From the NCBI GenBank assembly GCA_040386515.1, contig JAZKFG010000005.1, positions 9,313-73,312 on the forward strand: a stretch of 64,000 nt of DNA, written 5' to 3'. Shown piece after piece: positions 3,957 to 54,761 of the stretch. The notes under the pieces are model-generated. The model was not told where the DNA came from. It worked only from the letters and a program-made list of their open reading frames with translations, and made no database searches. The translations under genes and the position numbers were made by a program. Each line of letters starts with the position of its first letter. Within the stretch, counting starts at the first letter, position 1. Source of the DNA: Patescibacteria group bacterium (GTDB taxonomy: Bacteria; Patescibacteriota; Minisyncoccia; Phycocordibacterales; CAIZLB01).

Positions 3957-6179
3957 TTATTCTGGCGTTGTAGCAGAAGGAGTTTCTACGGTTTGAGTTG
4001 GTGTAGGCTCCTGCACTATTGGTTCTGGGACAATAACAGGTTCTACAGATGTTGAAGTACTCACAATCGGTTCAGACTGACTAGGCTGAACAGGTGAAGG
4101 TGTTTGAATATTTACATTAAACCCTCCCCCATTTTGAGCTGCCATTCGTAGAAGGTTTTTGAATTGATCTTTACTAATACACACTTCATCAGAACATACT
4201 TGTCCTTCTACATTTAGCTTTGAATCTTGTTTAACTGTAAATGTAGTATCGTCCGTAAACCATACAGCAATTTTCTCAACTTTTGCTGCCAATTCCTTCA
4301 CCGCATTCACAAGCGCCGCCAATATCGGACGATCAGCAAGAGTAAGAAACCCTCTCGCATCTTCTCCTACAGCTTCAGGAATATTCTCTTGTATGTTTTG
4401 AGCTGAGAACCCAGCATAGTTATTTACCGTGTCATATCCTGTTTCTGGTTTCCATTTATATACAATAGGGTTAATGCCTAGTATTTTATCTAATCCTGTT
4501 TTAAATTCTCCTTGTATATCTTTTAGTCTTTCATCAGATGATACGGTTACGTTACCAAGTGAGTCTACTACTAAGTTTGCTCCTCCACCTACGAGTGAGG
4601 TGAAGCGTATGGTTCCTGAGGCGGTGAGGTTGGCAGAGGGGGTTGAGGTGCCGATGCCGAGTCTACCATCATGAGTAAGTCTCATTTTTTCTGTTCGAGA
4701 TATTGTTCCTGATGCGATTGTTTCAAAAGACAATTCACCTGGAGCTGAAGTTGATGTCCAAGTTTGAGGAGCATATCCAGTAATTGCAGCTGCATTACGC
4801 ATTGATGTGCCATCATTTCCCCCAAATATTAAACCTGCTAATCTATCACCTGTTGCCATCGCTGCACCATCATTTGCATATAACTGTATAAATGAACCAC
4901 TTGAAGGTCCAGTTGCAGCGCTTGATTCACCAACGAATACTGCTCCAGATGATGTATTCCCTACACCAATTCCATTTGATCCCGCACCAGTAAACACACT
5001 AGTCGATGTTGAAATTTGCCCAATTTGTAATTTATATACAGGAGTTGTTGTTCCAATACCTAGATTACCAAGATGATCAAGCCGCATCCTCTCTGCTGGT
5101 GTTGCATTGTTTGCAGTTGAGAAAACTAAAGCACCTTTGTAAGTATTTATATCAGTAATAATTCCAGACATACGAGCAATATCTGTTCGAGTTGTACCTG
5201 TTCTTCGTGCAGTAAACAATATACCCGAACCTGTATTTACAGCCGCAGTTCCTCTGTTATCGAGTCGGAGAAAATCAGGAGCCGATCCACTAACTGAATC
5301 AGTGATATCGAGCTTGTATTCAGGACCTGTGTTGCCGATACCCACCAGTCCGCCGAACGGCGCCATCTGAATAGATCCCTTATTGGATGACAGATCATTT
5401 CCAGGAGCGATTTCGATAACATTATCATCAGCGCCTGCTGAGCGAATTATTGAGGCATTACCTCCATACATTTGCCCTGCACTTTGTTGACCTATAACCA
5501 ACCCTCTCCCTCCTGAATTTGCCCTTTCCAGAAAAATAAATTTATCTTTCGTACCCGTAATATGAATCCCTTGTGTCTTATTTACACCTAAATCAATAGT
5601 AAGTGCAGTGGTTGAACTCGCGGCAGTTGTTGTTCCAATAGCAACATTTCCAGCAGAATAATATGTAGTTGTTCCATTTGCTTGCCATAGAGATACTGAA
5701 GTCCACGTAGTTCCATTTGATGTATATAGAGTGTTGTCAGTAGTATTAAAATATAGTGATCCAGCAGGACCTACTGTTGGCGCAGAACTGTAAGAAAACG
5801 TTCCAAAAGATTTAAGAGCAGTTGGTGCAGCGTTGAGTGAAGTACGTGGAGATAGATCAGTGCCGTTGATATTTACTTGAACATACAGAGCTTGATCGAA
5901 GTTAACTCCTGTAGTATCTGATTCTGTGAATGAAGTACCAAAGTAACCATTAGCAACAGTTACTGTTTTTACAATTGGAGATCCTGTCGTACTTCCTCCT
6001 GAAAGCGAATCATAAAATGTAAATGTTGCGTTAACACTACTACTTAGTGGAGCACCATTACTAAAAAGTTGCCCCTGAAAACCTAAACTCTTTGAGGGTG
6101 ATGCAGCGAAAATACTTGCACTAGAAATAAGCGCAGTGATGAGAAAAGTGGAGATGAGTAATAAAGTTCTTTTCTGCAT
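3957..6179 (-). CDS. Secreted fibre-like protein, paralog 1 of 3. It has a signal peptide, a conserved N-module, a Gly-rich beta-repeat core, a C-terminal Peptidase S74-like intramolecular-chaperone domain and a Pro/Thr-rich tail.
   Basis: 740 aa. N-terminal signal/TM segment followed by the AASPSKSLGFQGQLFSNGAPLSSSVNATFTFYD module shared with 30384-34598 and 52899-54761. The C-terminus carries SSDERLKDIQGEFKTGLDKILGINPIVYKWKPETGYD...RGFLTLADRPILAALVNAVKELAAKVE, consistent with the SDxRxK autocleavage family. Confidence 0.8.
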   Translation of the reverse strand: MQKRTLLLISTFLITALISSASIFAASPSKSLGFQGQLFSNGAPLSSSVNATFTFYDSLSGGSTTGSPIVKTVTVANGYFGTSFTESDTTGVNFDQALYVQVNINGTDLSPRTSLNAAPTALKSFGTFSYSSAPTVGPAGSLYFNTTDNTLYTSNGTTWTSVSLWQANGTTTYYSAGNVAIGTTTAASSTTALTIDLGVNKTQGIHITGTKDKFIFLERANSGGRGLVIGQQSAGQMYGGNASIIRSAGADDNVIEIAPGNDLSSNKGSIQMAPFGGLVGIGNTGPEYKLDITDSVSGSAPDFLRLDNRGTAAVNTGSGILFTARRTGTTRTDIARMSGIITDINTYKGALVFSTANNATPAERMRLDHLGNLGIGTTTPVYKLQIGQISTSTSVFTGAGSNGIGVGNTSSGAVFVGESSAATGPSSGSFIQLYANDGAAMATGDRLAGLIFGGNDGTSMRNAAAITGYAPQTWTSTSAPGELSFETIASGTISRTEKMRLTHDGRLGIGTSTPSANLTASGTIRFTSLVGGGANLVVDSLGNVTVSSDERLKDIQGEFKTGLDKILGINPIVYKWKPETGYDTVNNYAGFSAQNIQENIPEAVGEDARGFLTLADRPILAALVNAVKELAAKVEKIAVWFTDDTTFTVKQDSKLNVEGQVCSDEVCISKDQFKNLLRMAAQNGGGFNVNIQTPSPVQPSQSEPIVSTSTSVEPVIVPEPIVQEPTPTQTVETPSATTPE

Positions 6180-6239
6180 GATAAATAAACGTAATATGAC
6201 TATTATTATATCTTTTTTGCGCTCAACTCACAAGAATTT

Positions 6240-7181
6240 CTACAGACTGAACAACGTCTTAGCCGTAAAATACACAACATAAAATCCAACAATCATATAC
6301 GGACCAAAAGGCAGCTCACTCTTAAGTTTCAATGCAGGCAAATATTTTATCAAACGTGCAGTAGTTTTTGATTTAAACAATCGAACATGGAGTGCATTAT
6401 CTTTATTTGAAAAAGCTTCAACAAGCTCTCGAAGAAGCATTATTGCAAGAGCCGCAATACATCCAATCCAGAATGAATAAATAATTGCAGTGAATCCACT
6501 TCCTATTCCAAGTGCCCAGCCAATCACAAGAGCAAGCTTTGCATCACCAAGCCCCATCCATCTTCCTCCCGACACTAGCCATAGTAGTGCAAATGGTAAT
6601 GCGGTTAACAATCCAGAAGAAATACTAAACAAGAAATCTACCGTTCCACTTGTACCAAAGAAAATAAGTGCCAGGAGCATTTTTGCCAAAGCAATGCCTG
6701 ATGCCAAATACACCAATCCATCTGGAATAATCTTATGCTTCATATCGTACACTGCAATAACAATAAAGAGTGCTGCGATTTTAAGATCAAATATTAAAAA
6801 CAAAATCTGAAGCCATGGATGTATTGCCAGCACATCAGTTACCGTTGATGTATCAAACATATGCATTCCGATAAATGAACCTCCGTGTGTTCCAAAGAAA
6901 TACGCATAAAATATACCTGTTAATAAAAATCCAGTGAGTAGTTCTACAGTTGGATATTGTGGAGATACCGCAGAATGGCAGTGTCGGCACTTTCCTTTAT
7001 TTACCACATAACTCAATACAGGAACAAGATCAAGAGGACCAAGTGTTGTGTTGCAAGAAAAACACTTTGATCTACCCTTTGCAATACTGAGGCCGGTATT
7101 ATATCGATAAATTACTACATTTAAAAAACTACCTATTACTATTGAGAAAATAAAGAATGTAAGTATGGCGAAATAAATCAT
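6240..7181 (-). CDS. pilD: Type IV prepilin leader peptidase / N-methyltransferase (A24 family)
   Basis: Polytopic membrane protein with an N-terminal CxxC...CxxC zinc-binding DiS-P-DiS-like segment (CFSCNTTL...CRHCHS) followed by the A24 peptidase region. Confidence 0.8.
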   Translation of the reverse strand: MIYFAILTFFIFSIVIGSFLNVVIYRYNTGLSIAKGRSKCFSCNTTLGPLDLVPVLSYVVNKGKCRHCHSAVSPQYPTVELLTGFLLTGIFYAYFFGTHGGSFIGMHMFDTSTVTDVLAIHPWLQILFLIFDLKIAALFIVIAVYDMKHKIIPDGLVYLASGIALAKMLLALIFFGTSGTVDFLFSISSGLLTALPFALLWLVSGGRWMGLGDAKLALVIGWALGIGSGFTAIIYSFWIGCIAALAIMLLRELVEAFSNKDNALHVRLFKSKTTARLIKYLPALKLKSELPFGPYMIVGFYVVYFTAKTLFSL

Positions 7182-8092: not shown

Positions 8093-8097
8093 TTTTG

Positions 8098-8580: not shown

Positions 8581-9168
8581 ATGAACATAACTTCAGCTAC
8601 ATTTGTCCGAGGATGCACTCATGACACAAACCTCATACAAGACAACATTCCTCAAATAGCCTTTATTGGCCGATCAAATGTCGGCAAGTCTTCAGTGATC
8701 AATTCTCTCGTAGGAAGAAAAGCTCTAGCTCGATCTAGTTCAACTCCAGGCTTTACAAAAGAAGCTAATTTCTTTTTGATAAATGAAAACACATACATTG
8801 TCGATCTTCCAGGATACGGATTTGCCAAAGGATCAAAGTCTGACCAAGAAAAAATTATGCGACTTATTCAGTGGTATGTGTTTCATCCTGATCTTGAACA
8901 AAAAAAGATTGTATTAATTCTTGATGCAAAAGTAGGACCATCACCTCAAGATGTTGAGACACTTCGACAGCTTGAAGAAGCAGGTAAAGATATTGTGATC
9001 GTTGTAAATAAAGTAGATAAGGTAAAGCAAGGAGAACTAAATAAAACACTTAAAGTAATTGATAGTGTTGTTGGAGGCCATACAGTTATTCAATACTCTG
9101 CTGAGAAAAAGATCGGCGTTGATAAGTTACGAGAGGTCGTATTTACAACAGTTAATGATATACTGTAA
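8581..9168 (+). CDS. engB: Ribosome biogenesis GTP-binding protein EngB/YsxC
   Basis: G1 motif GRSNVGKSS, G3 motif DLPGYG and G4 motif NKVDK, with the length and motif order typical of EngB. Confidence 0.75.
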   Translation: MNITSATFVRGCTHDTNLIQDNIPQIAFIGRSNVGKSSVINSLVGRKALARSSSTPGFTKEANFFLINENTYIVDLPGYGFAKGSKSDQEKIMRLIQWYVFHPDLEQKKIVLILDAKVGPSPQDVETLRQLEEAGKDIVIVVNKVDKVKQGELNKTLKVIDSVVGGHTVIQYSAEKKIGVDKLREVVFTTVNDIL

Positions 9169-9170
9169 AA

Positions 9171-9683
9171 ATGTTTAAACTCGTTAAAATCTTTTTAATT
9201 TGTGGAGTAATATGTATAGGTCTCATTACCTTAATTGGAATGAGCGGTGATACAGAATCTGATGAACCAGTATATAAAGTACATAATTCAGAAGAGATGC
9301 ATAAAGTTATTAACACTCTGATCGAAACAGGCACTCCTGCAGATTGTAAAAGAATGAAAGCGCCGTGGTTTACATTTTCAGATGAAGCATTAAATCCAGA
9401 ATTAAATTGCATTTGGAAATTTGCAAAGGCAAAAAAAGATGTGTCTATATGTAAGCTAATACCCAGCGAACAATTAAACTCATACGAACGTTTTTGCATT
9501 GGCGATGTTGTCCGTATCACTAAGAATGTAAAAGATTGTGATCAATTTTCTGACACAATCAAAGATGGGTGTATTTCCGAAGTTTCTCAAGCAATACCGG
9601 ATAGATTAATATGTAAAAATATTACGACACCTGATACACAAAAAGGATGTGAAATGGTTTGGGATAATATTTTTAACCAATAA
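9171..9683 (+). CDS. Cys-rich membrane-anchored/secreted hypothetical protein
   Basis: N-terminal TM/signal segment, and at least 10 Cys residues in the ectodomain. Confidence 0.45.
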   Translation: MFKLVKIFLICGVICIGLITLIGMSGDTESDEPVYKVHNSEEMHKVINTLIETGTPADCKRMKAPWFTFSDEALNPELNCIWKFAKAKKDVSICKLIPSEQLNSYERFCIGDVVRITKNVKDCDQFSDTIKDGCISEVSQAIPDRLICKNITTPDTQKGCEMVWDNIFNQ

Positions 9684-9695
9684 AGCACTACTTGC

Positions 9696-10259
9696 CTAAG
9701 CATTATACAATCTCACGCGTATAGTATTTCCTGAGAAATGATTGGTGAATTTCTCAACGTCTATTTCAACAGCTTCCCATTCCCTCTCTCCATATGAAGA
9801 TGTATGATGAACAATTAATGAGATTATTTTTCCATCTTCTTCTACATATCCAATCACAGGAACTAAGTGTCCTGTTTTTTGATTATCAATAAATGCAGGA
9901 CCAATTGAAACTATAAATATATTATCTTGGTCAATGTATCTTTTAAATTCTTGAATATCTTCAATTTTCATTCTCCCTGCATCAATTCCTCTATCATTGA
10001 ATTCTTTTGCTATTTTATGATGTATACAACCTACACCTAATTTGTATACTCCTTTTTCTTCCATTTCCTCTATAAGCGATGCGAATAATTGATCTTTATA
10101 TTTATCATGCAAATTAAAAACCATTTTCATACAGGCAATTCCGCATACTCTGTTTTCCCACTGTAATGCATGTTCTTTGTCTTTAAATCCTCTTTCCTGC
10201 CACTCGTGACTTGAGCGCTGTGAGAAAAATGGAATTATATGTATGACTTTCTTTTTCAT
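9696..10259 (-). CDS. Peptidase C39-like (papain-fold) domain protein
   Basis: RVCGIACMKMVFNLH resembles the C39 catalytic Cys motif (CGxAaLamvl), and a downstream GHLVPVIGY supplies the His. Confidence 0.45.
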   Translation of the reverse strand: MKKKVIHIIPFFSQRSSHEWQERGFKDKEHALQWENRVCGIACMKMVFNLHDKYKDQLFASLIEEMEEKGVYKLGVGCIHHKIAKEFNDRGIDAGRMKIEDIQEFKRYIDQDNIFIVSIGPAFIDNQKTGHLVPVIGYVEEDGKIISLIVHHTSSYGEREWEAVEIDVEKFTNHFSGNTIRVRLYNA

Positions 10260-10265
10260 ATTCGA

Positions 10266-11159
10266 CTACAACTCAATCTTGCCTTGTACAGTATGCAATT
10301 CAACATTTTTAATAGTTGGATATTGTGTAAGCGTATCCTTAAGTACAGCAAACAAATGCTGAGTCTGACAGCTACTTAATGAGCTAAGAGGTTTTCCTGC
10401 TCGAGTCATATTGCTTGTAAGCATTACCTTTGCAACACCTTTTTCAATAGTTACTGATTTATAAACTCCATATTCTGCCAATTCATTACCAAAAAGTATT
10501 TTCAATGACGCATCGGCAACCGATGTTGTTTTAGGCACCTGATATGTAACTGGATATGTTGCTGCACATGTCTCAGTTTCTGCAACTTTTTTATCTTGTA
10601 GATATACAGTCAATGACATTTCATTTGCAGGAGGAAGAGTAACAGTGAAATCTACTTTATTACTTTCCTTTCCCCAAGGTGATGTATATATTTTATATTT
10701 TCCAGGAGTGATACTCACATAGTTTTTGCATGGCTGGCCAGAATATGAATTATTCTCCTTACAAATATTTGCATCAATTTTTACACGTATAGTATTATCT
10801 TTTCTTGGCACATATCCAATACCTGCAAGAAATGCAACTTCCCCTTTACTGTTTTCAATGAGTGCATCCATATCACCTTCTAGGCCCGCGAAATTAACAC
10901 CCTTCAATTCAATAATTGTTCCAACTGGACCTGATGATTGCGAAATAGATGAAATAAATGGCGCATTATGATCAGTTGGAGTTTTTACTGTATTTTGTGT
11001 AGGAATAACAGGAGTTGGATTATTTGTATTCGTATCTGTTGTTGCAACAGCCGGCGCATCTTCCTTTTTATCAGTATATAAATATATACAGCCAGCAATT
11101 GCCAGTGCAGCTACAATAGCAAGAAGAGGGATAATATAGCCTTTTTGTGTATTTCTCAT
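10266..11159 (-). CDS. Membrane-anchored protein with an IPT/TIG-like Ig domain
   Basis: N-terminal TM helix, a Thr/Pro/Asn linker, and an ISSISQSSGPVGTIIELKGVNF IPT/TIG-like motif. Confidence 0.4.
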   Translation of the reverse strand: MRNTQKGYIIPLLAIVAALAIAGCIYLYTDKKEDAPAVATTDTNTNNPTPVIPTQNTVKTPTDHNAPFISSISQSSGPVGTIIELKGVNFAGLEGDMDALIENSKGEVAFLAGIGYVPRKDNTIRVKIDANICKENNSYSGQPCKNYVSITPGKYKIYTSPWGKESNKVDFTVTLPPANEMSLTVYLQDKKVAETETCAATYPVTYQVPKTTSVADASLKILFGNELAEYGVYKSVTIEKGVAKVMLTSNMTRAGKPLSSLSSCQTQHLFAVLKDTLTQYPTIKNVELHTVQGKIEL

Positions 11160-18175: not shown

Positions 18176-18179
18176 TGTG

Positions 18180-18251
18180 CGGGCCCACTCAGAGTCGAAC
18201 TGAGAATTGCGCGTTTGGAGTGCGATGTTTTACCATTGAAACTATGGACCC
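18180..18251 (-). tRNA. tRNA-Trp (anticodon CCA); no CCA encoded
   Basis: Cloverleaf folded by hand, with a 7-bp acceptor (one GU) and a T-arm CTCAG-TTCGACT-CTGAG. The anticodon loop is CUCCAAA; the anticodon stem has only 3 Watson-Crick pairs. Confidence 0.55.
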
Positions 18252-18820: not shown

Positions 18821-18906
18821 TGGTGCGCAGAGTAGGATTTGAACCTACGTAGCCCGAAGGCGTCTGATTTACAGTCAGATGCGATTGACCACTCCGCCAT
18901 CTGCGC
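18821..18906 (-). tRNA. tRNA-Tyr (anticodon GTA), class II long variable arm, CCA encoded
   Basis: Acceptor GCGCAGA/TCTGCGC, anticodon arm TCTGA-CTGTAAA-TCAGA, T-arm GTAGG-TTCAAAT-CCTAC, and a 3' ACCA. Confidence 0.8.
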
Positions 18907-29165: not shown

Positions 29166-29242
29166 GGGCGCAGTGGCGAAGTGGTTTAACGCGGCAGTTT
29201 GCAAAACTGATATTTCGCCGGTTCAAATCCGGCCTGCGCCTC
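29166..29242 (+). tRNA. tRNA-Cys (anticodon GCA)
   Basis: Acceptor GGGCGCA/TGCGCCT, anticodon loop TTGCAAA, T-arm GCCGG-TTCAAAT-CCGGC. Confidence 0.7.
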
Positions 29243-29260
29243 CTGTTGGATAAAATAGTC

Positions 29261-29343: not shown

Positions 29344-29394
29344 CATAACAAGAAAGAGTATCCGAAAGGATACTCTTTCCATATTAGCCGAGGG

Positions 29395-30383: not shown

Positions 30384-33300
30384 TTACTCCCCATCAACAA
30401 CAGGAGCTGGAGTTTCAACCGGTGCAACAGGTTCAGGTGCAGGAGGAGTTACTTCTTCAGTGACTTCAGGTTCAGGAGTTGCACTTGATGAATCTGAAGG
30501 TGGAGGTACAACAGGTACTGTTGGTGCTGATGATGAATGTCCTCCTCCACCATTATTACCCTTTGCATTTAACATCATTTGCTTAAACTCTTGCTTTGTC
30601 ATACACACTTCCTCAACACAGAATTGTCCGTCGAGCTTGATTGAACTATTTTCAGGCACTGCCAGAGTTTTACCATCATCTTTAAACCATGCTGCAATCT
30701 GTTCAACTTTTGTCGCTAATTCTTTTACTGCATTTACAAGTGAAGCAAGAATAGGTCTGTCTGCAAGAGTTAAGAATCCTCGTGAATCAGTCGATACCGC
30801 TTCAGGAATTGCAGACTGAACATTCTGAGCACTAAATCCGGCATAACTATGTTCAGTGTCATATCCAGTTTCTATTTTCCATTTATACAAAATCGGATTA
30901 ATTTGCTTAATCTTATCAAGTCCAGAAATAAACATTCCTTGAATATCTTTTAGTCGTTCGTCAGATGATACGGTTACATTTCCAAGAGAATCAGTGATTA
31001 AGTTGGCACCCCCTGAACCAAGATTAATAAATCGAATTGTTCCAGATGCGGTCAATGTTGCTGATGGAGTACTTGTTCCAATACCCACATTTCCATTTGA
31101 AGTTATTCGCATTCGCTCAACATTATTCGAACCAAAGATAACATCAGTTGCATCAAGTGTTGCCATCATAATATTTCGTGAAGTTCCTGCCGTGTTAAAT
31201 ATTGCATCAACAGTATTTCTTGGAATTGATCCAAGGAAGTTTCCGGTGTAATTCACTCCTGCCTGGCTAAATGCAAAATAGTGATCAGATGTATCTTTGA
31301 TGAGGAATCTAAAGTCAGCTCCATTTCCTGTGCTTGTATTACCCATCTGAACCCCTGATGCACCGTTAAAGTTATCTGAAATATTTGCTGCAAACGTACT
31401 ATTACCTCCTATTGAAAGCGGAACAAAGGCAGCACTATTTGCGTTTACAGATAATTTGGCAAGCGGTGTTGTAGTTCCAATTCCAACATTTCCATTTGCC
31501 TGAACATTAAACAATGACGCATTAGATGCGCTCCAAATATCTATAATTGGGGCAGTTTGTGAAGTTGTTGCTTGTGCTGCAAATGTAGTACTGCCGATAT
31601 TAGTAGAAAATACATGCAACTTTGCTAAAGGTGATGTTGTTCCTATTCCGAAGTTTCCATTTGCATCCAGTGTCATTTTTGGAACAGTTCCTCCACCAGT
31701 TGTATCATTACTATAAAAAGTCAGAGCGTACGCAGATGACATTCTTAAGCCACGTGTGTTTCTCAAATCATAATCCATGTTAATACTTCCGTATTTTGTT
31801 CCTGTGTTTGTATTGCTAAATATCCAATCAAGACCGTAGCCCTGACCGGTCCCTCCTCCTCCAAGTGTAATACGTGTACTTCCTGTTTGATTACCTCCAA
31901 GATGTAATGCACTCATTGCAGAAGTGGTTCCAGTACTTATCCAACCATTTGAGGAATTAACAAACAATGCCGGCGCTGACGATGTTCCAACATTGAAACT
32001 ACCAGCAACATCAAGCTTTGCAGACGGTGACGAAGTTCCTATCCCAACATTTCCAGATGTTCCATCAATAACAAGCAACGGTGCTACTGTGTTTGTTATA
32101 AGAAACTTTCCAGCCCCTCCACTATTTGCAGAGCCGGTTGAAAGTATGTCAAAAGTTTTACCTCCAGTGTCTGTATTGACAAATTTCCAAACTGTACCAC
32201 CTGCTGCAGCAGAAGCCATTGTAAATAATGATCCAGGTGTTGTAGTTCCTATTCCGACATTTCCAGCAGATGTAATTCGAAGCCGTTCAGTTATGTTACC
32301 TGCATTTGGTCGAGTACTAAGAGCGATATATCCTCCATAATTTCCAGAAATTGAATCATCTCGTCCAGATCGAATCGCTGCATTAATTGCAACTGCCCCA
32401 GAGGTATTGTATTTTGCCCCGAATGAAAGCGTACCTCCATAATCTACAGTCGGTGACCCATCATTTGCAATAATGGCAACTTGACCCGAGCTAGTTCCAT
32501 TAACTAAAGTTTTATTCGGCGAAGCAAATACCGCTGTAAATGCTCGGTCAGAAGCACTACTTCCATCAAGTGTACCTGATTGAACACTCAATAAGCTGTT
32601 TGGAGAAGTTGTTCCAATTCCGACATTTCCAGCGTTAGTTATTTGAAATACAGACGTTCCATTTTTTGCAATTGAAACAAAATCAGCATTACCAGTGTTA
32701 TCAATTTTCAATGTTGGTGCAGCTGAGAAACCACTTTGTAGATGCATCAATGCAATACCAGGTTCATTTAATCGAACAAAAGATGTACCTGAAACATATA
32801 CATCTAATGCTGCTGCAGGCGTTGTTGTTCCAATTCCAACACTTCCAGCTAAGTAACCAACATTAGAACCATTAGTAATCCACTGACTACTCACCTTACT
32901 TGCCCACTCAGTTGTTGACGCACTAAGAGGAATTACATATCCTGAAGTGAGTGATAATATTCCAGTAGTAGATGAGTATGATAGTCCTGTTGCATCTGTT
33001 GAAAATGAATTCCGCACACTTGATGTACTAAATATTCCAGTGAGCTGCGAACCATCTCCAATAAATGCTGTGGCGTTCACATTTCCACTAAAGTAACCAT
33101 TACCAATTACTGAAAGTTTTTGCACTGGAGTTGTTGTGCCCATACCAACATTTCCATTATCCAAAATACTAAACAACGCAGTATTTGCAGAGTTGGTTGT
33201 CTGGAAGTTTATTCCCGTTGTTGTTCCAATCCCCTTTATTGCAAGACGTGAACTAGGAGTTGTCGTGCCTCCGATTCCGACATTGCCATTTAACAAAATA

Positions 33301-34598
33301 ATCATTTTTGCACTATCAGACGGACCGATAACGGTCGAGTTTGCAATTGCATTAGTTAATGATGTTCCAAAGGCAGAAGCATTGTTAGCAGTGACTGAAT
33401 TGGAAAATCCAAATGCCATACTATTTGATGAAGATGCGGCTATTACGTTATTGTATCCAAATGCATTACTCAAAGAACCTAAAGCGCTGTTATTATTTCC
33501 AAACGCCGACGTACGAAATCCATTTGCCGTATTGAGTGCACCCACTGCAGATGCATAATCCCCACCTGTTGCGAGGTTATTATTTCCGAAAGCACTTGCA
33601 TATTGTCCGACAAGACCAGCTGAGGTAGAACTACCTGCGACGTTTCCGGCACCGAATGCAGATGTCAAATGGCCGGCTGCCTTATTCTGCAATCCCATAG
33701 CACTATTTCCATACATCCAAGACAGAGAACCTGTTGCCACATTTGCCATACCTACTGAGATAGAATAATTACCTGCAATATTCCCATTTCCAATAGCGCC
33801 ACCTCCACCAGGAAATAGAGGGTCTACCATGTTATCAAGTCCGAATGTATATGAGTTTGAGGCTGCGGCAACCTGAGTTGGCAATGAGTGCGAAGACTGG
33901 ACATCTATTGACCCTGCACCTCGAGCATTACCACTTATGTCTCCCATTACGACAGCATTGTTTGAATTTATAACCTTAATATCACCCTGAACAGTTAGCG
34001 CTGAACCTGGCGTCGTTGTTCCAATTCCAACATTCCCTGTATTAAAATACGTATCACTGTCATTCATCAACCATGGTGATGTAGAAGCTGAACTAGCCGT
34101 AACATTCCAAGATGTTCCATCAGATACAAACAATGTATTTGAGACATTGTTAAAATACAAAGATCCAGCTGGACCTACTGTTGGCGCTGATGCATATGAA
34201 AATGCTCCAAAAGATTTTAATGCGGTTGGCGCAGCATTAAGTGCAGTTCGTGGAGATAAGTCAGTACCATTAATATTTACCTGAACATATAATGCTTGAT
34301 CAAAGTTAACACCAGTTGTGTCCGCTTCAGTAAAAGATGTTCCAAAATATCCGTTAGCAACAGTTATTGTTTTTGCAATTGGAGAACCTGTTACTACTCC
34401 TCCTGAGAGTGAATCGTAAAATGTAAATGTTGCGTTTACTGATGATGATACTGGCGCATTGTTACTGAAAAGTTGCCCTTGGAAACCGAGTGCTTTTGAT
34501 GGACTTGCAGCATATATATTTACAGCGAAAAAAAGCGTAGAAATTGCAGAAATGAGAATGGTAAATAAAGTTCTTCTCTTCATGATGCATACACGCAA
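30384..34598 (-). CDS. Giant secreted fibre-like protein (1404 aa), paralog 2 of 3. It has the same N- and C-terminal modules as paralogs 1 and 3, around an expanded Gly-rich repeat core.
   Basis: Signal peptide; the shared N-module AASPSKALGFQGQLFSNNAPVSSSVNATFTFYD...; at least 9 copies of the (N/A/S)GNVGIGTTTPxxxLxV repeat; and the C-terminal SSDERLKDIQGMFISGLDKIKQINPILYKWKIETGYD...RGFLTLADRPILASLVNAVKELATKVE with a Pro-rich tail. Confidence 0.85.
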   Translation of the reverse strand: MRVCIMKRRTLFTILISAISTLFFAVNIYAASPSKALGFQGQLFSNNAPVSSSVNATFTFYDSLSGGVVTGSPIAKTITVANGYFGTSFTEADTTGVNFDQALYVQVNINGTDLSPRTALNAAPTALKSFGAFSYASAPTVGPAGSLYFNNVSNTLFVSDGTSWNVTASSASTSPWLMNDSDTYFNTGNVGIGTTTPGSALTVQGDIKVINSNNAVVMGDISGNARGAGSIDVQSSHSLPTQVAAASNSYTFGLDNMVDPLFPGGGGAIGNGNIAGNYSISVGMANVATGSLSWMYGNSAMGLQNKAAGHLTSAFGAGNVAGSSTSAGLVGQYASAFGNNNLATGGDYASAVGALNTANGFRTSAFGNNNSALGSLSNAFGYNNVIAASSSNSMAFGFSNSVTANNASAFGTSLTNAIANSTVIGPSDSAKMIILLNGNVGIGGTTTPSSRLAIKGIGTTTGINFQTTNSANTALFSILDNGNVGMGTTTPVQKLSVIGNGYFSGNVNATAFIGDGSQLTGIFSTSSVRNSFSTDATGLSYSSTTGILSLTSGYVIPLSASTTEWASKVSSQWITNGSNVGYLAGSVGIGTTTPAAALDVYVSGTSFVRLNEPGIALMHLQSGFSAAPTLKIDNTGNADFVSIAKNGTSVFQITNAGNVGIGTTSPNSLLSVQSGTLDGSSASDRAFTAVFASPNKTLVNGTSSGQVAIIANDGSPTVDYGGTLSFGAKYNTSGAVAINAAIRSGRDDSISGNYGGYIALSTRPNAGNITERLRITSAGNVGIGTTTPGSLFTMASAAAGGTVWKFVNTDTGGKTFDILSTGSANSGGAGKFLITNTVAPLLVIDGTSGNVGIGTSSPSAKLDVAGSFNVGTSSAPALFVNSSNGWISTGTTSAMSALHLGGNQTGSTRITLGGGGTGQGYGLDWIFSNTNTGTKYGSINMDYDLRNTRGLRMSSAYALTFYSNDTTGGGTVPKMTLDANGNFGIGTTSPLAKLHVFSTNIGSTTFAAQATTSQTAPIIDIWSASNASLFNVQANGNVGIGTTTPLAKLSVNANSAAFVPLSIGGNSTFAANISDNFNGASGVQMGNTSTGNGADFRFLIKDTSDHYFAFSQAGVNYTGNFLGSIPRNTVDAIFNTAGTSRNIMMATLDATDVIFGSNNVERMRITSNGNVGIGTSTPSATLTASGTIRFINLGSGGANLITDSLGNVTVSSDERLKDIQGMFISGLDKIKQINPILYKWKIETGYDTEHSYAGFSAQNVQSAIPEAVSTDSRGFLTLADRPILASLVNAVKELATKVEQIAAWFKDDGKTLAVPENSSIKLDGQFCVEEVCMTKQEFKQMMLNAKGNNGGGGHSSSAPTVPVVPPPSDSSSATPEPEVTEEVTPPAPEPVAPVETPAPVVDGE

Positions 34599-34695
34599 GT
34601 GATGCTTATATTATATGCGTTTTTCGTAACTTTAACAAGAAAAAACTCCACAGAATTGTGAAGTTTTTTCGAGCAAATTTTTTACAATTTTTTAA

Positions 34696-36578: not shown

Positions 36579-39449
36579 TTACTTAATCATGCTTAATGGA
36601 GACTTCACTTCTTCTTTTTTCTCTTCCTTTTTATATTTTTCCATAATACCTTCTTCAACCATATCTCGATCTTGACCGTATGTTAGATATGAAAGCTCTT
36701 TAAGATTTTCTACAATATTTGGATTGCCTTTTTCTTGCGGCATCATTTGTATGTTAAATGGCTTTGTCGGCTTTCCATATGAGAGCATTTTCACATAGGC
36801 ATTAAAGTTATCAATATTCATAATATCGTTCGCCATAAAAGTGGGCTCAAATTGCTTTTCAAGATATTCTGCATCCTCAGCACCAACTCGATAGACCACC
36901 ATATTTCCAACGTTACCAAACACAGATGCCTTGATTTTATCATCAAGCTGAGCAATGAACTGATGAGCCATTGTAAGCGACAATTTATACTTTCGTGCCT
37001 CTGACAAAATAGTTGAAATAGACGGTGTGGTTACGTTTTGGAACTCGTCGATATACAAATAAAACGGCGGCATATCTTTTCCGAATGAATCCACACGCGA
37101 AAGTGCGGCCATCAAAATCTTTCCTACAATAATCAAACCGATAAGGTTAGAGTTAATTTCACCCAACTTTCCTTTTGCCAAGTTCACCAGCAAAATCTTT
37201 TTCTTATCCATGATTTCTCGAAAATTAAAACTAGAATGTTCCTGAGCGATAATCGGTCGCATAATATCATTGGCCAAAAATACATCAAACTTTGATGTGA
37301 TATATGGCACCATGTTTGCAAGGCCAGATTCCCCGCTTGTCTTTTCTGCAATTTCAACCCAAAATTGCCGCACGATCGGATTTTTACATCGTGAGATTTT
37401 CATGTCTCGGAAGCTTTTAACGGCCATTACTCGAGAAACATCAAGGAGTGTACACCCGCTCGATGGATCTTCGATTACAAGCATTGTGGCATTTCTAAAA
37501 TACTGCTCAAACATCGGCCCCATACTTTCAGGCACGCCACCGTATAACTTTTGGAAAATACTAAAAAGCTCGTTTACCACGAATGTTTTTTGCTCAGGAT
37601 GCGATGGATCATATTCGAGCATGTTCAATGCCATTGGACGTTCTGTATAACTTGGATCAAAATAAATAACATCATCAAATCTATCCTTTGGGATTTTTGA
37701 AAGAATATCCTGAATGTCAGATCCGTGCGGGTCGATAAAACACACTCCTTCTCCATTTTTAATATCTTGAAGAATGAGATTTTTAAGAATACTTGATTTA
37801 CCCACACCAGTTTGTCCGATCACATACATGTGTCGAAGTCTGTCTTCTGGCGCCATGTAAACTGGCTGTTCAACATTTCTATGAAGATTCTTACCGAGAA
37901 GCACACCTGTGCGAGGAAGGTCGAGTGGGGCCGGAGCAGTTCCAGCTTTTGACTGCTTGAGCTGCGGCGCATTTGTAGCTCCAGAAAGCATTGGAAAATG
38001 CATCACACTCGAAAGCTCTTTTATAGAAAGCGGAATAATTTCTTTTTGATTAAAAATACGAAATGAAAAATCATGCAAAAAACTTTGTAGTCTAGCTTTC
38101 TCTGGTCGCTCCCACGAAAATCCATTTCCAAGCGCATTATTAAACTGATTAAAACTTGATTCAAGATCAGAAAGTATTTGCTCGGCACGAATCGTATTCG
38201 CAGCTGATGCAACAAGACGAATATTTGTTTCAACAATTGGCGTAGTTATTTTCTTGGTGATTTGCTCAAGGGCTATCTGGTCAACAACTTTTTCTTTATC
38301 TTTTTTATTTTTATCATCTCCATTGACTGCGTGCTCAACCAATTCTTTCCCAAGCTCTCCTGCAGCTTTAGTAAAATGTCCCCACATGGTGTGGCGAATA
38401 TCGATAGACTTTTTCAACGAATCACCCTTACGCACTTTATCAAGAGACTCTTTAAAAAGCTTTGTATAATAATCTCCGACCTGACTAAATACAACCTGCA
38501 CAGATGCCCCTTCTCCCTCTCTTTGAATCTTAGAGAGCGTATTGAGTGTTACCTGCAAAGGATCATGATCAAATTCATCATACATTTTTATAGGAAAAAT
38601 TTCATTCTTAGTTGAAGTTGCATATGAGCCAACGCTTGATCCATCAGAGTTAAAGATATTATAATCGTCATGTTTTATTTCTATTTTTGCACCTGGAAAT
38701 ACAGACAAAATATGCTTTTCAAAAAGATCCGCTTTTGCATCTGGAATAGAAACATAGAAAATAAATTCTTCACTTGCATCAGCCACTGCAAGCTCAATAG
38801 TCATATGATTTTTACTATCTCCCTGCTTTTTACCAGCATCAGAAATAGACATCATACCTGCATAAAATTGTTCCATTGCAGAAAGAAGTTCTTTCAATGG
38901 CCGTTGTCCTGCATCTTTTTTATCAGCTTTAAAATCAGGCAAAGACACTTCATACAATGTATGCGTGATTGATTTTTGTATTGGCTCGCCTTCTTTTAAA
39001 TCCTTAATTGTTAAACCCGCTTTCAAATATTCAACAAGAAATCTATGGAAATCATCTTCGAGATGAGGGTTTTTGGTTTGATGAATGGCAGACAAAGCAT
39101 TATGAATACCGTATTTTTCCATTAAGGTAAAATACTCTTCCATGTTTTTATCATGTGCTTCAGGCGAAAGCTTAAGAACTATTTCTGTACCTCGAGTCTC
39201 ATGCTCTTGAGGTGTAGCCTTATACGATTCATGCAAAAGATCACGGCCAGTATTGGCATGATATTCTTTTATTTCCTCGCGGATAATCTGATCCTGTTCT
39301 TTTTGTCCGCCAATAGTTGCTTCATGTGCTTTTACTTGCGCACGTAAATAATCCAACTCTTCTTCTAAGGTTGTAAAAGGTTTTTTTTCAGGCTCTGCAG
39401 AGAGATTAGGTTGGCCTGCAATATTTTCTATGTGTTCTCTATCGATCAT
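36579..39449 (-). CDS. P-loop ATPase of the FtsK/HerA/VirB4/TraG superfamily (AAA_10/DUF87-like) with a ~500-aa uncharacterised N-terminal domain
   Basis: Walker A GQTGVGKSS is followed by CFIDPHGSDI, which matches the DPxGE motif of DUF87/VirB4/VirD4 ATPases. Walker B is YLYIDEFQ, and a downstream RKYKLSLTMAHQ matches the RK...Q motif of conjugative ATPases. No TM helices. Confidence 0.55.
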   Translation of the reverse strand: MIDREHIENIAGQPNLSAEPEKKPFTTLEEELDYLRAQVKAHEATIGGQKEQDQIIREEIKEYHANTGRDLLHESYKATPQEHETRGTEIVLKLSPEAHDKNMEEYFTLMEKYGIHNALSAIHQTKNPHLEDDFHRFLVEYLKAGLTIKDLKEGEPIQKSITHTLYEVSLPDFKADKKDAGQRPLKELLSAMEQFYAGMMSISDAGKKQGDSKNHMTIELAVADASEEFIFYVSIPDAKADLFEKHILSVFPGAKIEIKHDDYNIFNSDGSSVGSYATSTKNEIFPIKMYDEFDHDPLQVTLNTLSKIQREGEGASVQVVFSQVGDYYTKLFKESLDKVRKGDSLKKSIDIRHTMWGHFTKAAGELGKELVEHAVNGDDKNKKDKEKVVDQIALEQITKKITTPIVETNIRLVASAANTIRAEQILSDLESSFNQFNNALGNGFSWERPEKARLQSFLHDFSFRIFNQKEIIPLSIKELSSVMHFPMLSGATNAPQLKQSKAGTAPAPLDLPRTGVLLGKNLHRNVEQPVYMAPEDRLRHMYVIGQTGVGKSSILKNLILQDIKNGEGVCFIDPHGSDIQDILSKIPKDRFDDVIYFDPSYTERPMALNMLEYDPSHPEQKTFVVNELFSIFQKLYGGVPESMGPMFEQYFRNATMLVIEDPSSGCTLLDVSRVMAVKSFRDMKISRCKNPIVRQFWVEIAEKTSGESGLANMVPYITSKFDVFLANDIMRPIIAQEHSSFNFREIMDKKKILLVNLAKGKLGEINSNLIGLIIVGKILMAALSRVDSFGKDMPPFYLYIDEFQNVTTPSISTILSEARKYKLSLTMAHQFIAQLDDKIKASVFGNVGNMVVYRVGAEDAEYLEKQFEPTFMANDIMNIDNFNAYVKMLSYGKPTKPFNIQMMPQEKGNPNIVENLKELSYLTYGQDRDMVEEGIMEKYKKEEKKEEVKSPLSMIK

Positions 39450-51536: not shown

Positions 51537-52742
51537 TTACGCAACGATTTTTGTTACAACTCCGGCTCCTACAGTCTTACCTCCTTCTCGGATAGCAAAT
51601 CGTGTATTGTCCTCTAGAGCGATTGGAGCTACAAGCTTTACTTTAAAAGTAACTGTATCTCCAGGCATAACCATTTTTCCTTCTTCAGCTAGTGTTACTT
51701 CACCTGTTACGTCAGTTGTTCGAACGTAGAACTGTGGCTTATAACCTGAGAAGAATGGTGTATGTCGTCCTCCTTCTTCTTTCTTCAAGATGTATACTTC
51801 TGCTTCAAAGTCTGTATGAGGCTTAACTGAACCTGGTTTAGCAAGTACCTGTCCTCGTGAAATATCTTCTTTCTTTACAGATCGTAGTAGTAGTCCAGCG
51901 TTATCTCCAGCCATACCTTCTGATAGAGATTTGTTGAACATTTCAACCCCTGTAACGATAGTCTTAACAGTGTCTTTTAGACCTACGATTTCGATTTCTT
52001 CACCAATTTTGATGATTCCTTTCTCGATTCGTCCTGTAACTACAGTTCCTCGTCCTTCAATAGAGAATACGTCTTCTACTGGCATTAGGAAAGGTTTGTC
52101 AGTCTCACGTACTGGTGTTGGGATAAATGAGTCGATAGCGTCAGCTAGATCAACGATTTTCTGTGCCCACTCATCACTAACATCTGCTGCGTTCAAAGCT
52201 TTTAGAGCTGAACCTCGGATAACTGGTGCGTTAGCTCCATCAAATCCGTTCTTTGTTAGAAGTTCACGTATTTCCTCTTCTACAAGGTCAAGCATGTCTT
52301 TATCATCAACCATGTCACACTTGTTCATAAATACAAGAATCTGAGGTACTCCAATCTGCTTTGCAAGAAGAACGTGCTCACGTGTTTGTGGCATAGGTCC
52401 GTCTGTTGCTGCAACCACAAGGATAGCACCGTCCATCTGAGCTGCTCCTGTAATCATGTTTTTGATGTAGTCGGCGTGACCTGGAGCATCAACGTGTGCG
52501 TAGTGACGTGTTGGTGTCTCGTATTCACAGTGAGCAAGAGAAATAGTAATTCCTCGAGCTTTTTCCTCTGGAGCTTTGTCAATTTCGTTCATTCCTAGAA
52601 GTTTGGCTCCATAACCATTTCCCTTCTTTGAAAGAACACTAAGAATAGCCGCTGTAAGAGTTGTCTTACCGTGGTCAACGTGGCCGATTGTACCAACGTT
52701 TACGTGTGTTTTTGATCGATCGAATGCTTCTGCTACTGCCAT
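51537..52742 (-). CDS. tuf: Elongation factor Tu
   Basis: 401 aa with [18 protein letters not shown] and NKCD motifs. Confidence 0.97.
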
Positions 52743-52898
52743 ATATTTTTATATTCAATTAATTAATATTTTATGTAATTTTGCGAATTTTTGGTTTGGG
52801 GTAAATGTACGTGAATAACTTACCTCAAAGCAAAAAGAAAATCGCAATGGATACAAGTGTAGCAACTGCGATTCTTATTGTCAATCAATATTATAATC

Positions 52899-54761
52899 TT
52901 ATTCTGTTGTTGTGTCTGTTACTGGTGCCGGAATTGGATCTGGCACAGGTTGTACAGCTGGTTCAACCTCAGGTGCTGGCGCTGGTGTAACTGGTACTTC
53001 AACTATTTGTTCAGGAGTACTGCTTGAAGTCGGTGCTGGTGGAGGTACAGAAGGAAGCGGCTGCTGAATAATATTAATGTTTTGACTTGTCATCAGTGTT
53101 TCAATTTGATCCCCTGTTATACAAACTTCTTGACCATTAGTTTTTTGAACACATAGATTTTTAGTTTTAACAATATCGGTCTCTACAAGTTTTGTTTTAA
53201 CCGCTTCAGCAAATCCCTCCACCTTAGCAGCAAGCTCCTTCACCGCATTCACAAGCGCCGCAAGGATAGGACGGTCAGCTAATGTAAGAAAACCTCGTCC
53301 ATCTGTTCCTACAGCTTCTGGAATATTTTCTTGAACATTTTGTGCACTAAATCCTGCATATGCATTTGTTGTATCGTACCCAGTCTCTGGTTTCCATTTA
53401 TACATGATTGGGTTAAGACCTAGGATTTTCTCTAATCCTGTTTTAAATTCTCCTTGTATATCCTTTAGTCTTTCGTCAGATGATACGGTTACGTTACCAA
53501 GTGCATCAGTTGAGAGTGATCCTGCACCAAGTGATGCAAAACGTACTGTTCCTGTTGTTGTAAATTGAGCTGTTGGGGTTGAGGTTCCGATGCCGACAAA
53601 TCCGTTTGCCATAATTCTCATTCTTTCAGAAGTGGTTGTTCCGACAGTCGTACCAAATATTAAATCGGTATCAAGCACAGTCGGAGTGTGGACCTGTGCG
53701 GACATAGCACGAATGAATGCAGTTGTTGTTCCTGGATCTGTGAGCTGCGAGTCGTTACTTGAAAAATTAATCATTCCAATTGGTTCATTTGCAGATATAG
53801 CGTAACGAAATGATCTAAGGTTGAGACTTCCACTAGATGAGGCGGCACCAGTTAGGACATATGTGCCCGATCCAGCTACAACCAAACGAGCATCCACAAC
53901 TGAAGAACCTATGCCAACATCTCCAGGAGTAGTAATAATCATTTTATCACTACTTGCAGTTGTGTTTGTTGCAGCACGGTTTGCATTTCCAAAACGCAAC
54001 ACACCAGCTGACATACGCATATAGCCAAATGGACGACCTACTGGATCGGCAGAATCAGCAACATTAGTATCCTCTATTCGAAGGAATCCACCATTAGCAC
54101 CAGAAATTCTAAGTGATGCGGTTCCAGCAGGATTCACCACATGAAAAAGTTCACTTGGAGTACTCGTTCCAACCCCAACCTTTCCAGCAATATAAGTAAT
54201 ATCAGTACCACTTGTTACCCATGGAGTTGATACAGTCCACGTTGTTCCGTTTGATATATACAGAGTGTTATCAGTTGTATTGAAATACAGAGATCCAGCT
54301 GGACCAACTGTTGGTGCACTTGCATATGAGAATGCTCCAAAAGACTTAAGAGCAGTAGGGACTGCATTCAAAGCAGTTCGAGGACTTAGATCTGTACCGT
54401 TGATATTTACCTGAACATACAATGCTTGATTGAAGTTTACTCCTGTTGTATCTGCTTCTGTAAATGATGTTCCAAAGTAACCATTTGCAACAGTTACTGT
54501 TTTTACAATCGGAGAACCTGTTACAGCTCCACCTGAGAGTGCATCATAAAATGTAAATGTTGCATTTACTGATGATGAAAGTGGAGCTCCACTACTATAT
54601 AGCTGTCCTTGAAAGCCAAGAGACTTTGAAGGAGAGGCAGCGAAGATAGTTGTTGCTGAAAATATACCAACAACAAGCATGGCAGACAAAAGATATTTTT
54701 TTGTAGTTAAAGTTCGTTTCATGTATATAGTTATTGTATATGTTTTTTCACTAATTAACAA
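52899..54761 (-). CDS. Secreted fibre-like protein, paralog 3 of 3 (conserved N-module, Gly-rich core, S74-like C-terminal domain, Pro-rich tail)
   Basis: 620 aa. Signal peptide; N-module AASPSKSLGFQGQLYSSGAPLSSSVNATFTFYD...; C-terminus SSDERLKDIQGEFKTGLEKILGLNPIMYKWKPETGYD...RGFLTLADRPILAALVNAVKELAAKVE; Pro/Ala/Val-rich tail. Confidence 0.8.
   Translation of the reverse strand: MLISEKTYTITIYMKRTLTTKKYLLSAMLVVGIFSATTIFAASPSKSLGFQGQLYSSGAPLSSSVNATFTFYDALSGGAVTGSPIVKTVTVANGYFGTSFTEADTTGVNFNQALYVQVNINGTDLSPRTALNAVPTALKSFGAFSYASAPTVGPAGSLYFNTTDNTLYISNGTTWTVSTPWVTSGTDITYIAGKVGVGTSTPSELFHVVNPAGTASLRISGANGGFLRIEDTNVADSADPVGRPFGYMRMSAGVLRFGNANRAATNTTASSDKMIITTPGDVGIGSSVVDARLVVAGSGTYVLTGAASSSGSLNLRSFRYAISANEPIGMINFSSNDSQLTDPGTTTAFIRAMSAQVHTPTVLDTDLIFGTTVGTTTSERMRIMANGFVGIGTSTPTAQFTTTGTVRFASLGAGSLSTDALGNVTVSSDERLKDIQGEFKTGLEKILGLNPIMYKWKPETGYDTTNAYAGFSAQNVQENIPEAVGTDGRGFLTLADRPILAALVNAVKELAAKVEGFAEAVKTKLVETDIVKTKNLCVQKTNGQEVCITGDQIETLMTSQNINIIQQPLPSVPPPAPTSSSTPEQIVEVPVTPAPAPEVEPAVQPVPDPIPAPVTDTTTE

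Follow-up and report, generated by a model that had tools for sequence, protein, structure and literature searches.

Three fibre genes share conserved ends around divergent cores

The window analysed here is a 64-kb stretch of Patescibacteria DNA that carries three genes for fibre-like proteins, which we label A, B and C and which all lie on the minus strand. The three open reading frames (ORFs), first pointed out in a preliminary description of the window, are complete and located as that description had placed them (Table 1). They are real paralogues that code for secreted fibres or adhesins, in which the ends are conserved and the middles vary. We found no fourth or partial fibre copy in the window by tblastn. 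The product of gene A is named 'tail fiber domain-containing protein' from a Patescibacteria group bacterium in the NCBI database (our entry P0004); this protein and that of gene C (P0001) are encoded on one 235,694-bp contig, and both names carry the prefix 'MAG:' (metagenome-assembled genome, MAG).

The translation of each segment revealed a common plan, consisting of a signal peptide of 25-28 amino acids (aa), a 138-aa N-terminal module (hereafter N-module), a core, a 140-aa block that holds the last stalk rung and the S74 domain, and a 100-aa tail. We read the signal peptides from the sequence by their basic n-region, hydrophobic core and cleavage motif (IFA↓A or IYA↓A). The preliminary description had reported a signal peptide followed by a near-identical N-module of about 170 aa; the signal peptide is indeed present in all three proteins, and the N-module measures 138 aa with 83-89% amino acid identity. 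Its account of a C-terminal module with SSDERLKDIQG followed by a Pro-rich tail held, with a conserved block of ~140 aa preceding the 100-aa tail, and its module coordinates were accurate. It had also called the middles completely different in length and sequence, but the lengths it gave are those of the whole proteins, and the cores share GNVGIGTTTP units and stretches of 25-27% identity. The core of gene C gave no tblastn match to the cores of A or B.

A repeat scan of the window identified 12 copies of a 47-nt unit coding for GN(V/L)GIGTTTP (repeat family D4), with two copies in A, nine in B and one in C. In gene B these copies span positions 31048 to 34037, and one of the nine (31048-31094) belongs to the conserved stalk end rather than to the core. 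Judged by eye, the core of B also contains a YadA-head-like stretch of Ser/Ala/Gly/Asn repeats, which has no Pfam match at E<=0.01, and a single tail-fibre 'GLSYSSTTGILSLTSGYVIPLSASTTEWA' unit.

In the tails of A, B and C, a Cys-x(5-9)-Cys mini-domain precedes a Pro-rich end, and the tails are 31-42% identical to each other. Counted from the first Ser of SSDERLK, each protein has 194 aa up to the stop, and the fragment predicted to be released by self-cleavage is exactly 192 aa in each (3957-4538, 30384-30965 and 52899-53480) despite the low identity of the last 100 aa. Among homologues from other MAGs, the SSDERLK-to-end distance varies from 160 to 201 aa. The final residue is Glu in A, B, C and most close homologues.

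Table 1. Positions of the three fibre genes and their parts in the 64-kb window
Gene	Feature	Position	Strand	Remarks and basis
A	Whole gene	3957..6179	-	740 aa; MAT-like S74-type fibre precursor; P0004
A	Signal peptide	6105..6179	-	MQKRTLLLISTFLITALISSASIFA, cut before AS; translation
A	N-module	5691..6104	-	138 aa; beta-sandwich and beta-hairpin; proposed to be a cell-proximal docking domain
A	Variable core	4680..5690	-	~337 aa; matches B and C only in stretches of 25-44% identity
A	Capping-loop units GN(V/L)GIGTTTP (n=2)	5023-5069, 5605-5651	-	Repeat family D4
A	Last stalk rung and S74 chaperone/protease domain	4260..4679	-	Pfam at residues 548-604
A	Catalytic motif SDERLK	4521..4538	-	Ser548...Lys553; translation; predicted autocleavage Ser548↓Asp549 would give a 523-aa mature fibre and a 192-aa fragment
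A	C-terminal tail	3957..4259	-	Cys-x5-Cys mini-domain, then Pro-rich segment with final Glu
B	Whole gene	30384..34598	-	1404-aa ORF; probable ATG start at 34583 gives the 1399-aa P0122
B	Signal peptide	34509..34583	-	MKRRTLFTILISAISTLFFAVNIYA, cut before AS
B	N-module	34095..34508	-	138 aa
B	Variable core	31107..34094	-	~996 aa; holds 8 of the 9 capping-loop units of B
B	Last stalk rung and S74 domain	30687..31106	-	Pfam, profile, translation
B	Catalytic motif SDERLK	30948..30965	-	Predicted mature fibre 1182 aa, released fragment 192 aa
B	C-terminal Cys mini-domain and Pro-rich tail	30384..30686	-	Translation
C	Whole gene	52899..54761	-	620-aa ORF; probable ATG start at 54722 gives the 607-aa P0001
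C	Signal peptide	54639..54722	-	MKRTLTTKKYLLSAMLVVGIFSATTIFA, cut before AS; AF2 helix at residues 2-21
C	N-module	54225..54638	-	138 aa
C	Variable core	53622..54224	-	~201 aa; low AF2 confidence as monomer
C	Last stalk rung and S74 domain	53202..53621	-	AF2 pLDDT 85-91; Pfam, profile, Foldseek
C	Catalytic motif SDERLK	53463..53480	-	Predicted mature fibre 387 aa, released fragment 192 aa
C	C-terminal Cys mini-domain and Pro-rich tail	52899..53201	-	Translation, AF2
MAT, mosaic adhesive trimer; AF2, AlphaFold2; pLDDT, predicted local distance difference test.

The conserved C-terminal block relates the fibres to mosaic adhesive trimers

All three proteins matched Peptidase_S74 (PF13884) with scores of 41-46 bits against a cutoff of 22 (A, E = 2e-10; B, E = 2e-11; C, E = 6e-12), and no other Pfam family was found in them at E<=0.01. 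The SDERLK motif is intact in A, B and C, with the S, D, R, L and K residues invariant across 16 family members. In the PHROGs collection, gene A matched tail-fibre families and gene B matched the tail-fibre family phrog_9942 (E = 7e-29).

When the protein of gene C was compared with all PDB sequences using phmmer, the sole match was Bd1334 of Bdellovibrio bacteriovorus (8OML; E = 4.5e-6). A profile of the stalk end plus S74, which we built from the 16 family members, matched Bd2133 (8OND; E = 2.6e-14), Bd1334 (E = 3.7e-11), Bd3182 (8OJN, 8ONB and 8ONC; E = 2.8e-9), a phage tail fibre (8JOV; E = 1.3e-8), the MyRF ICA domain (7DC3; E = 2.7e-6), Bd2439 (8OL4; E = 1.7e-5) and the long tail fibre of phage S16 (6F45; E = 2.7e-3). 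The Bdellovibrio proteins are those on which the superfamily of mosaic adhesive trimers (MATs) was defined, with 21 MATs in strain HD100 and 13 paralogues whose terminal S74 domain carries an SDxxxK motif (Caulton et al. 2024, PMC10769870). MAT stalks are intertwined trimeric beta-prisms with variable tips, the fibres are found on the predator surface, where they bind prey glycans, and Bd3182 cleaves itself at S782, the counterpart of the SDERLK serine (PMC10769870). The capping-loop consensus of these stalks, NVGIGTTxPxAKL (Supplementary Fig. 18 of PMC10769870), is the motif that is repeated 12 times in A, B and C.

A Foldseek search with an AF2 model of gene C returned the Bdellovibrio fibres as top matches, along with the MyRF ICA domain and the L-shaped tail fibre of phage T5, with the endosialidase chaperone below the 0.001 line. 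The best per-domain fold match was the MyRF ICA domain (TM-score 0.58-0.62, 25-28% identity). The model is that of a monomer with a mean pLDDT of 64, and its fold matches come mainly from the stalk end and S74 domain, which are predicted better. It consists of a signal helix, a confident N-terminal sandwich, a low-confidence core and an S74 region that is predicted with confidence and includes a long helix, followed by a small hairpin-helix Cys domain (pLDDT ~80) and a low-confidence Pro-rich tail. We also considered whether the proteins are trimeric autotransporter adhesins and rejected this assignment, as the C-terminal membrane anchor is absent from the matches of A, B and C; no match to a YadA-type beta-barrel anchor was found, and the C-terminus is made up of S74 plus the Pro-rich tail.

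What we observed directly comprises the domain architecture, the homology to MAT stalks and S74, the capping-loop motif, and the purifying selection and mosaicism among relatives that are described below. On this basis, we conclude that A, B and C are probably fibres of the MAT superfamily, S74 subtype, in a bacterium of the Patescibacteria (CPR, for candidate phyla radiation).

The N-module belongs to a large family

The N-module had no match to a Pfam (E<=10) or NCBIfam model. An AF2 prediction based on a 34-sequence alignment (pLDDT 85) gave a beta-sandwich of ~90 aa and, after it, a beta-hairpin motif. When 1.84 billion cluster representatives were searched with a profile, the matching proteins numbered 10,782 for E <= 1e-3, 337 for E <= 1e-10 and 36 for E <= 1e-30, and the named matches come from Patescibacteria, Parcubacteria and Kaiserbacteria MAGs and one Elusimicrobia MAG. 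Of 129 retrieved proteins, which are 110 to 3,225 aa long, 122 have the start of the module among their first 60 residues. An S74 domain is also present in 30 of 136 new representatives among the top N-module matches, and the N-domain in 24 of the 120 best S74-sharing homologues. A search with the N-module alignment against a set of 5.8 billion proteins returned one fragment only.

The last ~35 aa of the N-module (5691-5800, 34095-34204 and 54225-54334; FxYxSAPxxGxAGSLYFNTxxxxLYxSxGxxW) also match independently as a multi-copy repeat, which the representative search found in 6-19 stretches of other, unrelated-looking large proteins. We therefore view the N-module as a sandwich domain to which a single copy of an independently mobile hairpin repeat is joined. 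In a related Patescibacteria MAG, an ORF at locus L001 (JAZKJG010000001.1) that extends from position 9908 to beyond 20402 and past the locus end encodes a giant protein (more than 3,498 aa), in which many tandem 'GLTYNSSTGATSLTAGYVIPLTASTTEWA' tail-fibre-like repeats come after the same N-module. This ORF lies just downstream of ORFs of 1098 and 1229 aa, which by size only could be rpoB and rpoC.

Similarity of the gene ends at the DNA level

The shared ends of the fibre genes are the three strongest direct-repeat families in a repeat scan of the 64-kb window, and blastn aligns them with E values of 1e-37 to 1e-106, well outside what chance would give. The preliminary description had judged these ends to be 80-85% identical, with perfect runs of tens of nucleotides and a conservation well above that of the cores and flanking genes, and had seen in such repeats on both sides of variable cores a substrate for gene conversion or cassette shuffling. 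We measured 69-78% nucleotide identity over the modules; values of 80-83% occur, but are confined to the best 300-nt blocks of some pairs. Exact runs of 32, 28 and 26 nt exist between A and C, where the 28- and 32-nt runs sit on either side of the SDERLK codons, and the longest runs of the A-B and B-C pairs reach only 20-21 nt. No homology extends beyond the ORF ends, as the 400-nt flanks are unrelated and contain no common promoter sequence.

Amino acid identity exceeds nucleotide identity in the same regions (83-89% in the N-module and 77-87% in the S74 block, versus 67-79% for nucleotides), and identity at third codon positions in the modules is 0.44-0.60. Synonymous divergence (dS) between the paralogues, calculated with the NG86 method, ranges from 0.9 to more than 1.5 or is saturated, with a ratio of nonsynonymous to synonymous divergence (dN/dS) of about 0.10-0.14. 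Where two paralogues have the same degenerate residue, they use the same codon in 45-57% of cases, compared to 41-44% expected from codon usage, and a permutation test found no unusually long runs of identical codons between paralogues (P = 0.05-0.94). As dS is near saturation and codon identity is near the value expected from codon bias, the similarity of the ends stems from protein constraint and not from recent gene conversion; it is a by-product of strong purifying selection on the protein after long divergence. Thus, the ends do stand out as repeats, but show no excess over what protein conservation plus codon bias provide, and the excess of identity at synonymous sites on which the idea of a conversion substrate hung is essentially absent. 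On the dS values, the codon-identity test and the run-length permutation, we rejected recent gene conversion within the window.

The same pattern was seen in the related Patescibacteria MAG JAZKJG01, where two paralogues have a stretch of ~93 aa that is identical by eye and DNA that is ~81% identical over a 517-nt blastn alignment, which again indicates protein constraint rather than conversion. Nucleotide similarity of dispersed paralogues is, by itself, no evidence for gene conversion, since in this case it vanishes at synonymous sites.

The G+C content of the fibre genes (2001-6000, 32001-34000 and 52001-54000) is slightly higher, at 0.40-0.42, than that of most of the window (0.34-0.38). 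This may reflect the Gly/Ala/Thr/Ser-rich composition of the proteins rather than foreign origin.

Module exchange among relatives

Comparison with related genomes, which the preliminary description had proposed, found both turnover of cores and chimeric combinations of A-, B- and C-type modules. Two homologues, P0002 (779 aa) and P0121 (1232 aa), are encoded on the same 43,119-bp contig of another Patescibacteria MAG and share an identical 30-aa N-terminus. The pair corresponds to MES2623250.1 and its neighbour. The signal peptide of P0002 is of the A type (24 of 25 residues identical, where A and the other window paralogues have 36-39% identity), as is the block that precedes the cleavage site, SLVGGGANLVVDSLGNVTV; beginning at SSDERLKDIQG, its S74 domain matches that of C with 99-100% identity across about 80 aa. 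This switch from A to C falls at the window's two longest exact A-C DNA runs. P0121 consists of a signal of the A type, a B-type N-module (100% identical from residue ~30), another core, an S74 domain of the B/P0008 type and an A-type tail. In addition, a B-like signal is combined with an A-type tail (88%) in P0005, and P0008 resembles B at both ends (91%) with a core of 435 aa instead of 995 aa. The informative sites form long unbroken runs of one parental type and then the other (Fisher P = 2e-5 to 6e-6, uncorrected for the choice of breakpoint).

These chimeric relatives point to module exchange in this lineage, in which blocks appear to have been passed among family members over evolutionary time and cores to have turned over between related genomes. 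Similar mosaic behaviour has been described for MATs and phage tail fibres.

One alternative is that variation is active within this genome, with the 5' and 3' DNA modules serving as recombination substrates for ongoing conversion or cassette exchange among the cores of A, B and C. Such a system would account for the direct repeats dispersed on both sides of the divergent cores, the long A-C runs beside the SDERLK codons, the location of the relatives' switch points in conserved blocks (one exactly at SSDERLKDIQG) and the common N-terminus of P0002 and P0121. However, silent sites of the paralogues are near or at saturation, identical codons are neither much in excess nor clustered in significant runs, and sequences of 69-78% identity with exact runs that are mostly 20 nt or shorter make a poor substrate for RecA-type exchange. 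Furthermore, all copies are complete, separately started genes whose homology ends with the ORFs; there are no silent cassettes, and neither a recombinase or reverse transcriptase among the ORFs scanned nor a template repeat was found in the window. We consider active variation unlikely. The shuffling is instead an occasional, evolutionary-scale exchange of modules, and this genome shows no sign of an operating cassette system.

Genomic context and expression

Gene A has pilM (447-1568), a DEAD-box helicase gene and pilD (6240-7181) as neighbours, so that type IV pilus genes lie on either side of it, with the helicase gene between. An interplay of MAT fibres with type IV pili is a speculation of the MAT paper (PMC10769870). 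Gene B has a NUDIX gene on one side. On its other side lie genes whose products are a PG_binding_1 protein, a glycosyltransferase of the GT4 type and a coupling ATPase similar to VirD4/TraG, and beyond these map, adk, secY and the operon for ribosomal proteins. Gene C has tuf directly downstream, with a REC-only regulator (54769-55164) and ruvA upstream. ClpB, ThrRS and FolD are among the proteins encoded elsewhere in the window.

The pilD gene and the REC-only protein are as given in the preliminary description, but the ATPase gene that it had placed beside gene B as VirB4-like is neither of that type nor adjacent. The 956-aa protein (36579-39449, minus strand) matches T4SS-DNA_transf, TraG-D_C and TrwB_AAD_bind, which makes it similar to coupling proteins of the VirD4/TraG type, and PG_binding_1 and GT4 glycosyltransferase ORFs (34696-35322 and 35512-36540) lie between it and gene B, upstream of B. 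The window has no synteny with the 16 loci that we fetched; the sole notable match is a VirD4-like gene (8879-10576, 29% identical) in metagenome locus L008, ~2 kb from a distant N-module gene. The presence of VirD4-like genes near N-module genes may be a recurring association or a coincidence.

The window has 48 non-fibre ORFs with a length of 150 aa or more, and our context scan took in ~40 of them; among these we found no phage structural gene, integrase or recombinase, or reverse transcriptase. We also found no template-like repeat in the window. A diversity-generating retroelement target was rejected for these genes, as no reverse transcriptase was present among the scanned ORFs and no template/variable repeat in the window. 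Rfam identified five tRNA genes (Trp, Tyr, Cys, Leu-UAA and Lys; 18179-18251, 18821-18906, 29167-29344 and 59222-59295) and no other family above its gathering score in the window.

By eye, a TATAAT-like element is visible within ~40 nt upstream of each fibre-gene ATG (6180-6215, GATATAAT; 34584-34620, CATATAAT; 54723-54745, ATATACAAT). The upstream regions have no obvious Shine-Dalgarno sequence and are otherwise unrelated to each other.

Alternative functions and origins

The S74 domain was first defined in endosialidases, and A, B and C could be tailspike-like enzymes that the cell secretes, namely depolymerases or lyases of glycans, in which S74 serves for folding only and which degrade host surface polymers instead of acting chiefly as adhesins. 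Patescibacterial homologues of the C-terminal module do carry pectate-lyase/beta-helix, GDSL-lipase and F5/8 type C domains according to Pfam. However, S74 is the only Pfam domain in A, B and C even at E<=0.01, and their cores match fibre stalk units and tail-fibre families of PHROGs rather than enzyme families, which renders an enzymatic role improbable.

It is very improbable that the genes are remnants of tail fibres from a prophage, tailocin or contractile injection system rather than genes for cellular surface proteins, because, although their best family matches are phage tail-fibre PHROGs and structures and the names given by NCBI agree with these, all three products have a Sec signal peptide, which is not expected on a virion fibre assembled in the cytoplasm, the genes are scattered among housekeeping genes, the ORFs scanned include no gene for a capsid, tail, baseplate, integrase or lysis function, and the N-module has no relative in a scan of viral contigs and no match at E <= 1e-3 in the BFVD viral structure predictions.

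Proposed mechanism and significance

From the assignment of A, B and C to S74-type MAT fibres, we propose the following mechanism. Each gene would be expressed separately from its own upstream region, and the precursor would be exported by the Sec system with removal of the signal peptide at IFA↓A or IYA↓A. Outside the cytoplasm, the C-terminal S74 domain would act as an intramolecular chaperone that sets three chains in register and nucleates an intertwined beta-helix or beta-prism stalk, built of units that carry GNVGIGTTTPxxKL loops as caps. SDERLK, through its Ser-Lys dyad, would then cut between Ser and Asp and free a fragment consisting of the chaperone, the Cys mini-domain and the Pro-rich tail. 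The mature fibres (523 aa for A, 1182 aa for B and 387 aa for C) would be kept on the cell by the N-module, docked to a common surface element, with the divergent core and tip facing outward, so that the fibres could differ in reach and bind different host-cell ligands. The conserved ends would be kept by purifying selection on docking and folding and not by recent homogenisation, and over longer times the fibres may diversify by block exchange between paralogues or strains at conserved segments, notably the block around the S74 cleavage site. The preliminary description had suggested a surface adhesin for attachment to a host or prey, and a role in host attachment is indeed the best inference from the homology to Bdellovibrio MATs, for which A, B and C are good candidates.

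Several points weigh against this interpretation. Export, trimerisation, autocleavage, surface location or retention, and binding of a host ligand are all inferred. The AF2 monomer of gene C has a core with pLDDT values of 40-60 and low TM-scores to trimeric fibres, and we attribute the low confidence of the core to a chain that is expected to fold only as a trimer. The cores of A, B and C contain no recognised binding domain. The N-module was likened to the Bdellovibrio N-domain by description only, namely by its place in the protein, its length, its beta-rich fold and the lack of PDB relatives. Patescibacteria, unlike the diderm Bdellovibrio, are thought to have no outer membrane, and the docking partner would have to differ. 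Finally, the mosaicism is a protein-level comparison of MAG sequences, some of which may be assembly chimeras at conserved blocks.

Patescibacteria are not among the lineages listed in Table S3 of the MAT paper (PMC10769870), and the top-ranked papers of the literature searchable here include no report of MAT fibres in Patescibacteria/CPR; in the literature that we found, type IV pili are the adhesion machinery studied in this group. The finding would place MAT/S74 fibres in a phylum for which we found no report; it is mechanistically unsurprising and based on homology. A, B and C provide concrete candidates for host-specificity determinants of ultrasmall, episymbiotic Patescibacteria, with a testable mechanism that the likeness to MATs supplies (Sec export, S74-assisted trimerisation, self-cleavage and N-domain docking) and a target for comparative genomics in the block-wise exchange of modules at defined junctions. 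More tentatively, MAT-type fibres could be a general host-recognition device of episymbiotic Patescibacteria, in which the N-module plugs into a common element of a wall that lacks an outer membrane, possibly linked to the type IV pili whose pilD and pilM genes lie beside gene A, and host range is retuned by swaps of cores and chaperones among paralogues or strains at few conserved junctions, above all the block around the S74 cleavage site. If this possibility were true, the N-module family, with more than 10,000 cluster representatives and no Pfam model, would mark a very large and largely unrecognised class of bacterial surface fibres.

Comparison with known systems

Antigenic variation by gene conversion is known from pilE/pilS of Neisseria, vlsE of Borrelia and MgPa/MgPar of Mycoplasma genitalium, systems that have one expression site, promoterless partial cassettes and near-identical conserved DNA. 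The fibre genes resemble them in their dispersed copies and in the conserved segments that surround variable segments of a surface protein. They differ in that all copies are complete genes, with 69-78% identity and saturated synonymous sites.

With the S74 fibres of phages (K1F endosialidase, 3GW6; T5 pb1, 4UW8; S16 long tail fibre), A, B and C share a Ser-Lys-dyad S74 domain that follows a beta-helical stalk and, as predicted here, the trimeric state of that stalk and release of the chaperone after folding. In contrast to these, the window proteins are cellular and Sec-exported, have an N-terminal domain of their own that is not in the viral sets, and come without a virion. MYRF, whose ICA domain (7DC3) gave the best per-domain fold match, follows the same logic of trimerisation and subsequent self-cleavage, but it is a eukaryotic membrane-tethered transcription factor, and it is like the fibres only in the ICA module and the beta-helix rung upstream of it.

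The closest parallel comes from the S74 subfamily of B. bacteriovorus MATs (e.g. Bd3182, PMC10769870). Apart from the envelope of the bearer, the fibres described here differ from these in copy number, with three in this 64-kb window, all of the S74 type, versus 21 in HD100, and in the additional Cys mini-domain and Pro-rich tail that follow the chaperone. Bdellovibrio MATs have a signal peptide followed by a beta-rich N-domain of ~130 aa, which has no PDB homologue and is presumed to hold the fibre on the cell (PMC10769870), where A, B and C have the 138-aa N-module; both have stalk repeats with the NVGIGTTxPxAKL capping loop and a C-terminal S74 domain with SDxxxK. In both cases, several paralogues per genome differ greatly in length and have conserved ends and mosaic middles, and the bearer lives on other bacteria. 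These parallels are accompanied by the sequence and fold matches of the A/B/C family to Bd2133, Bd1334, Bd3182 and Bd2439.

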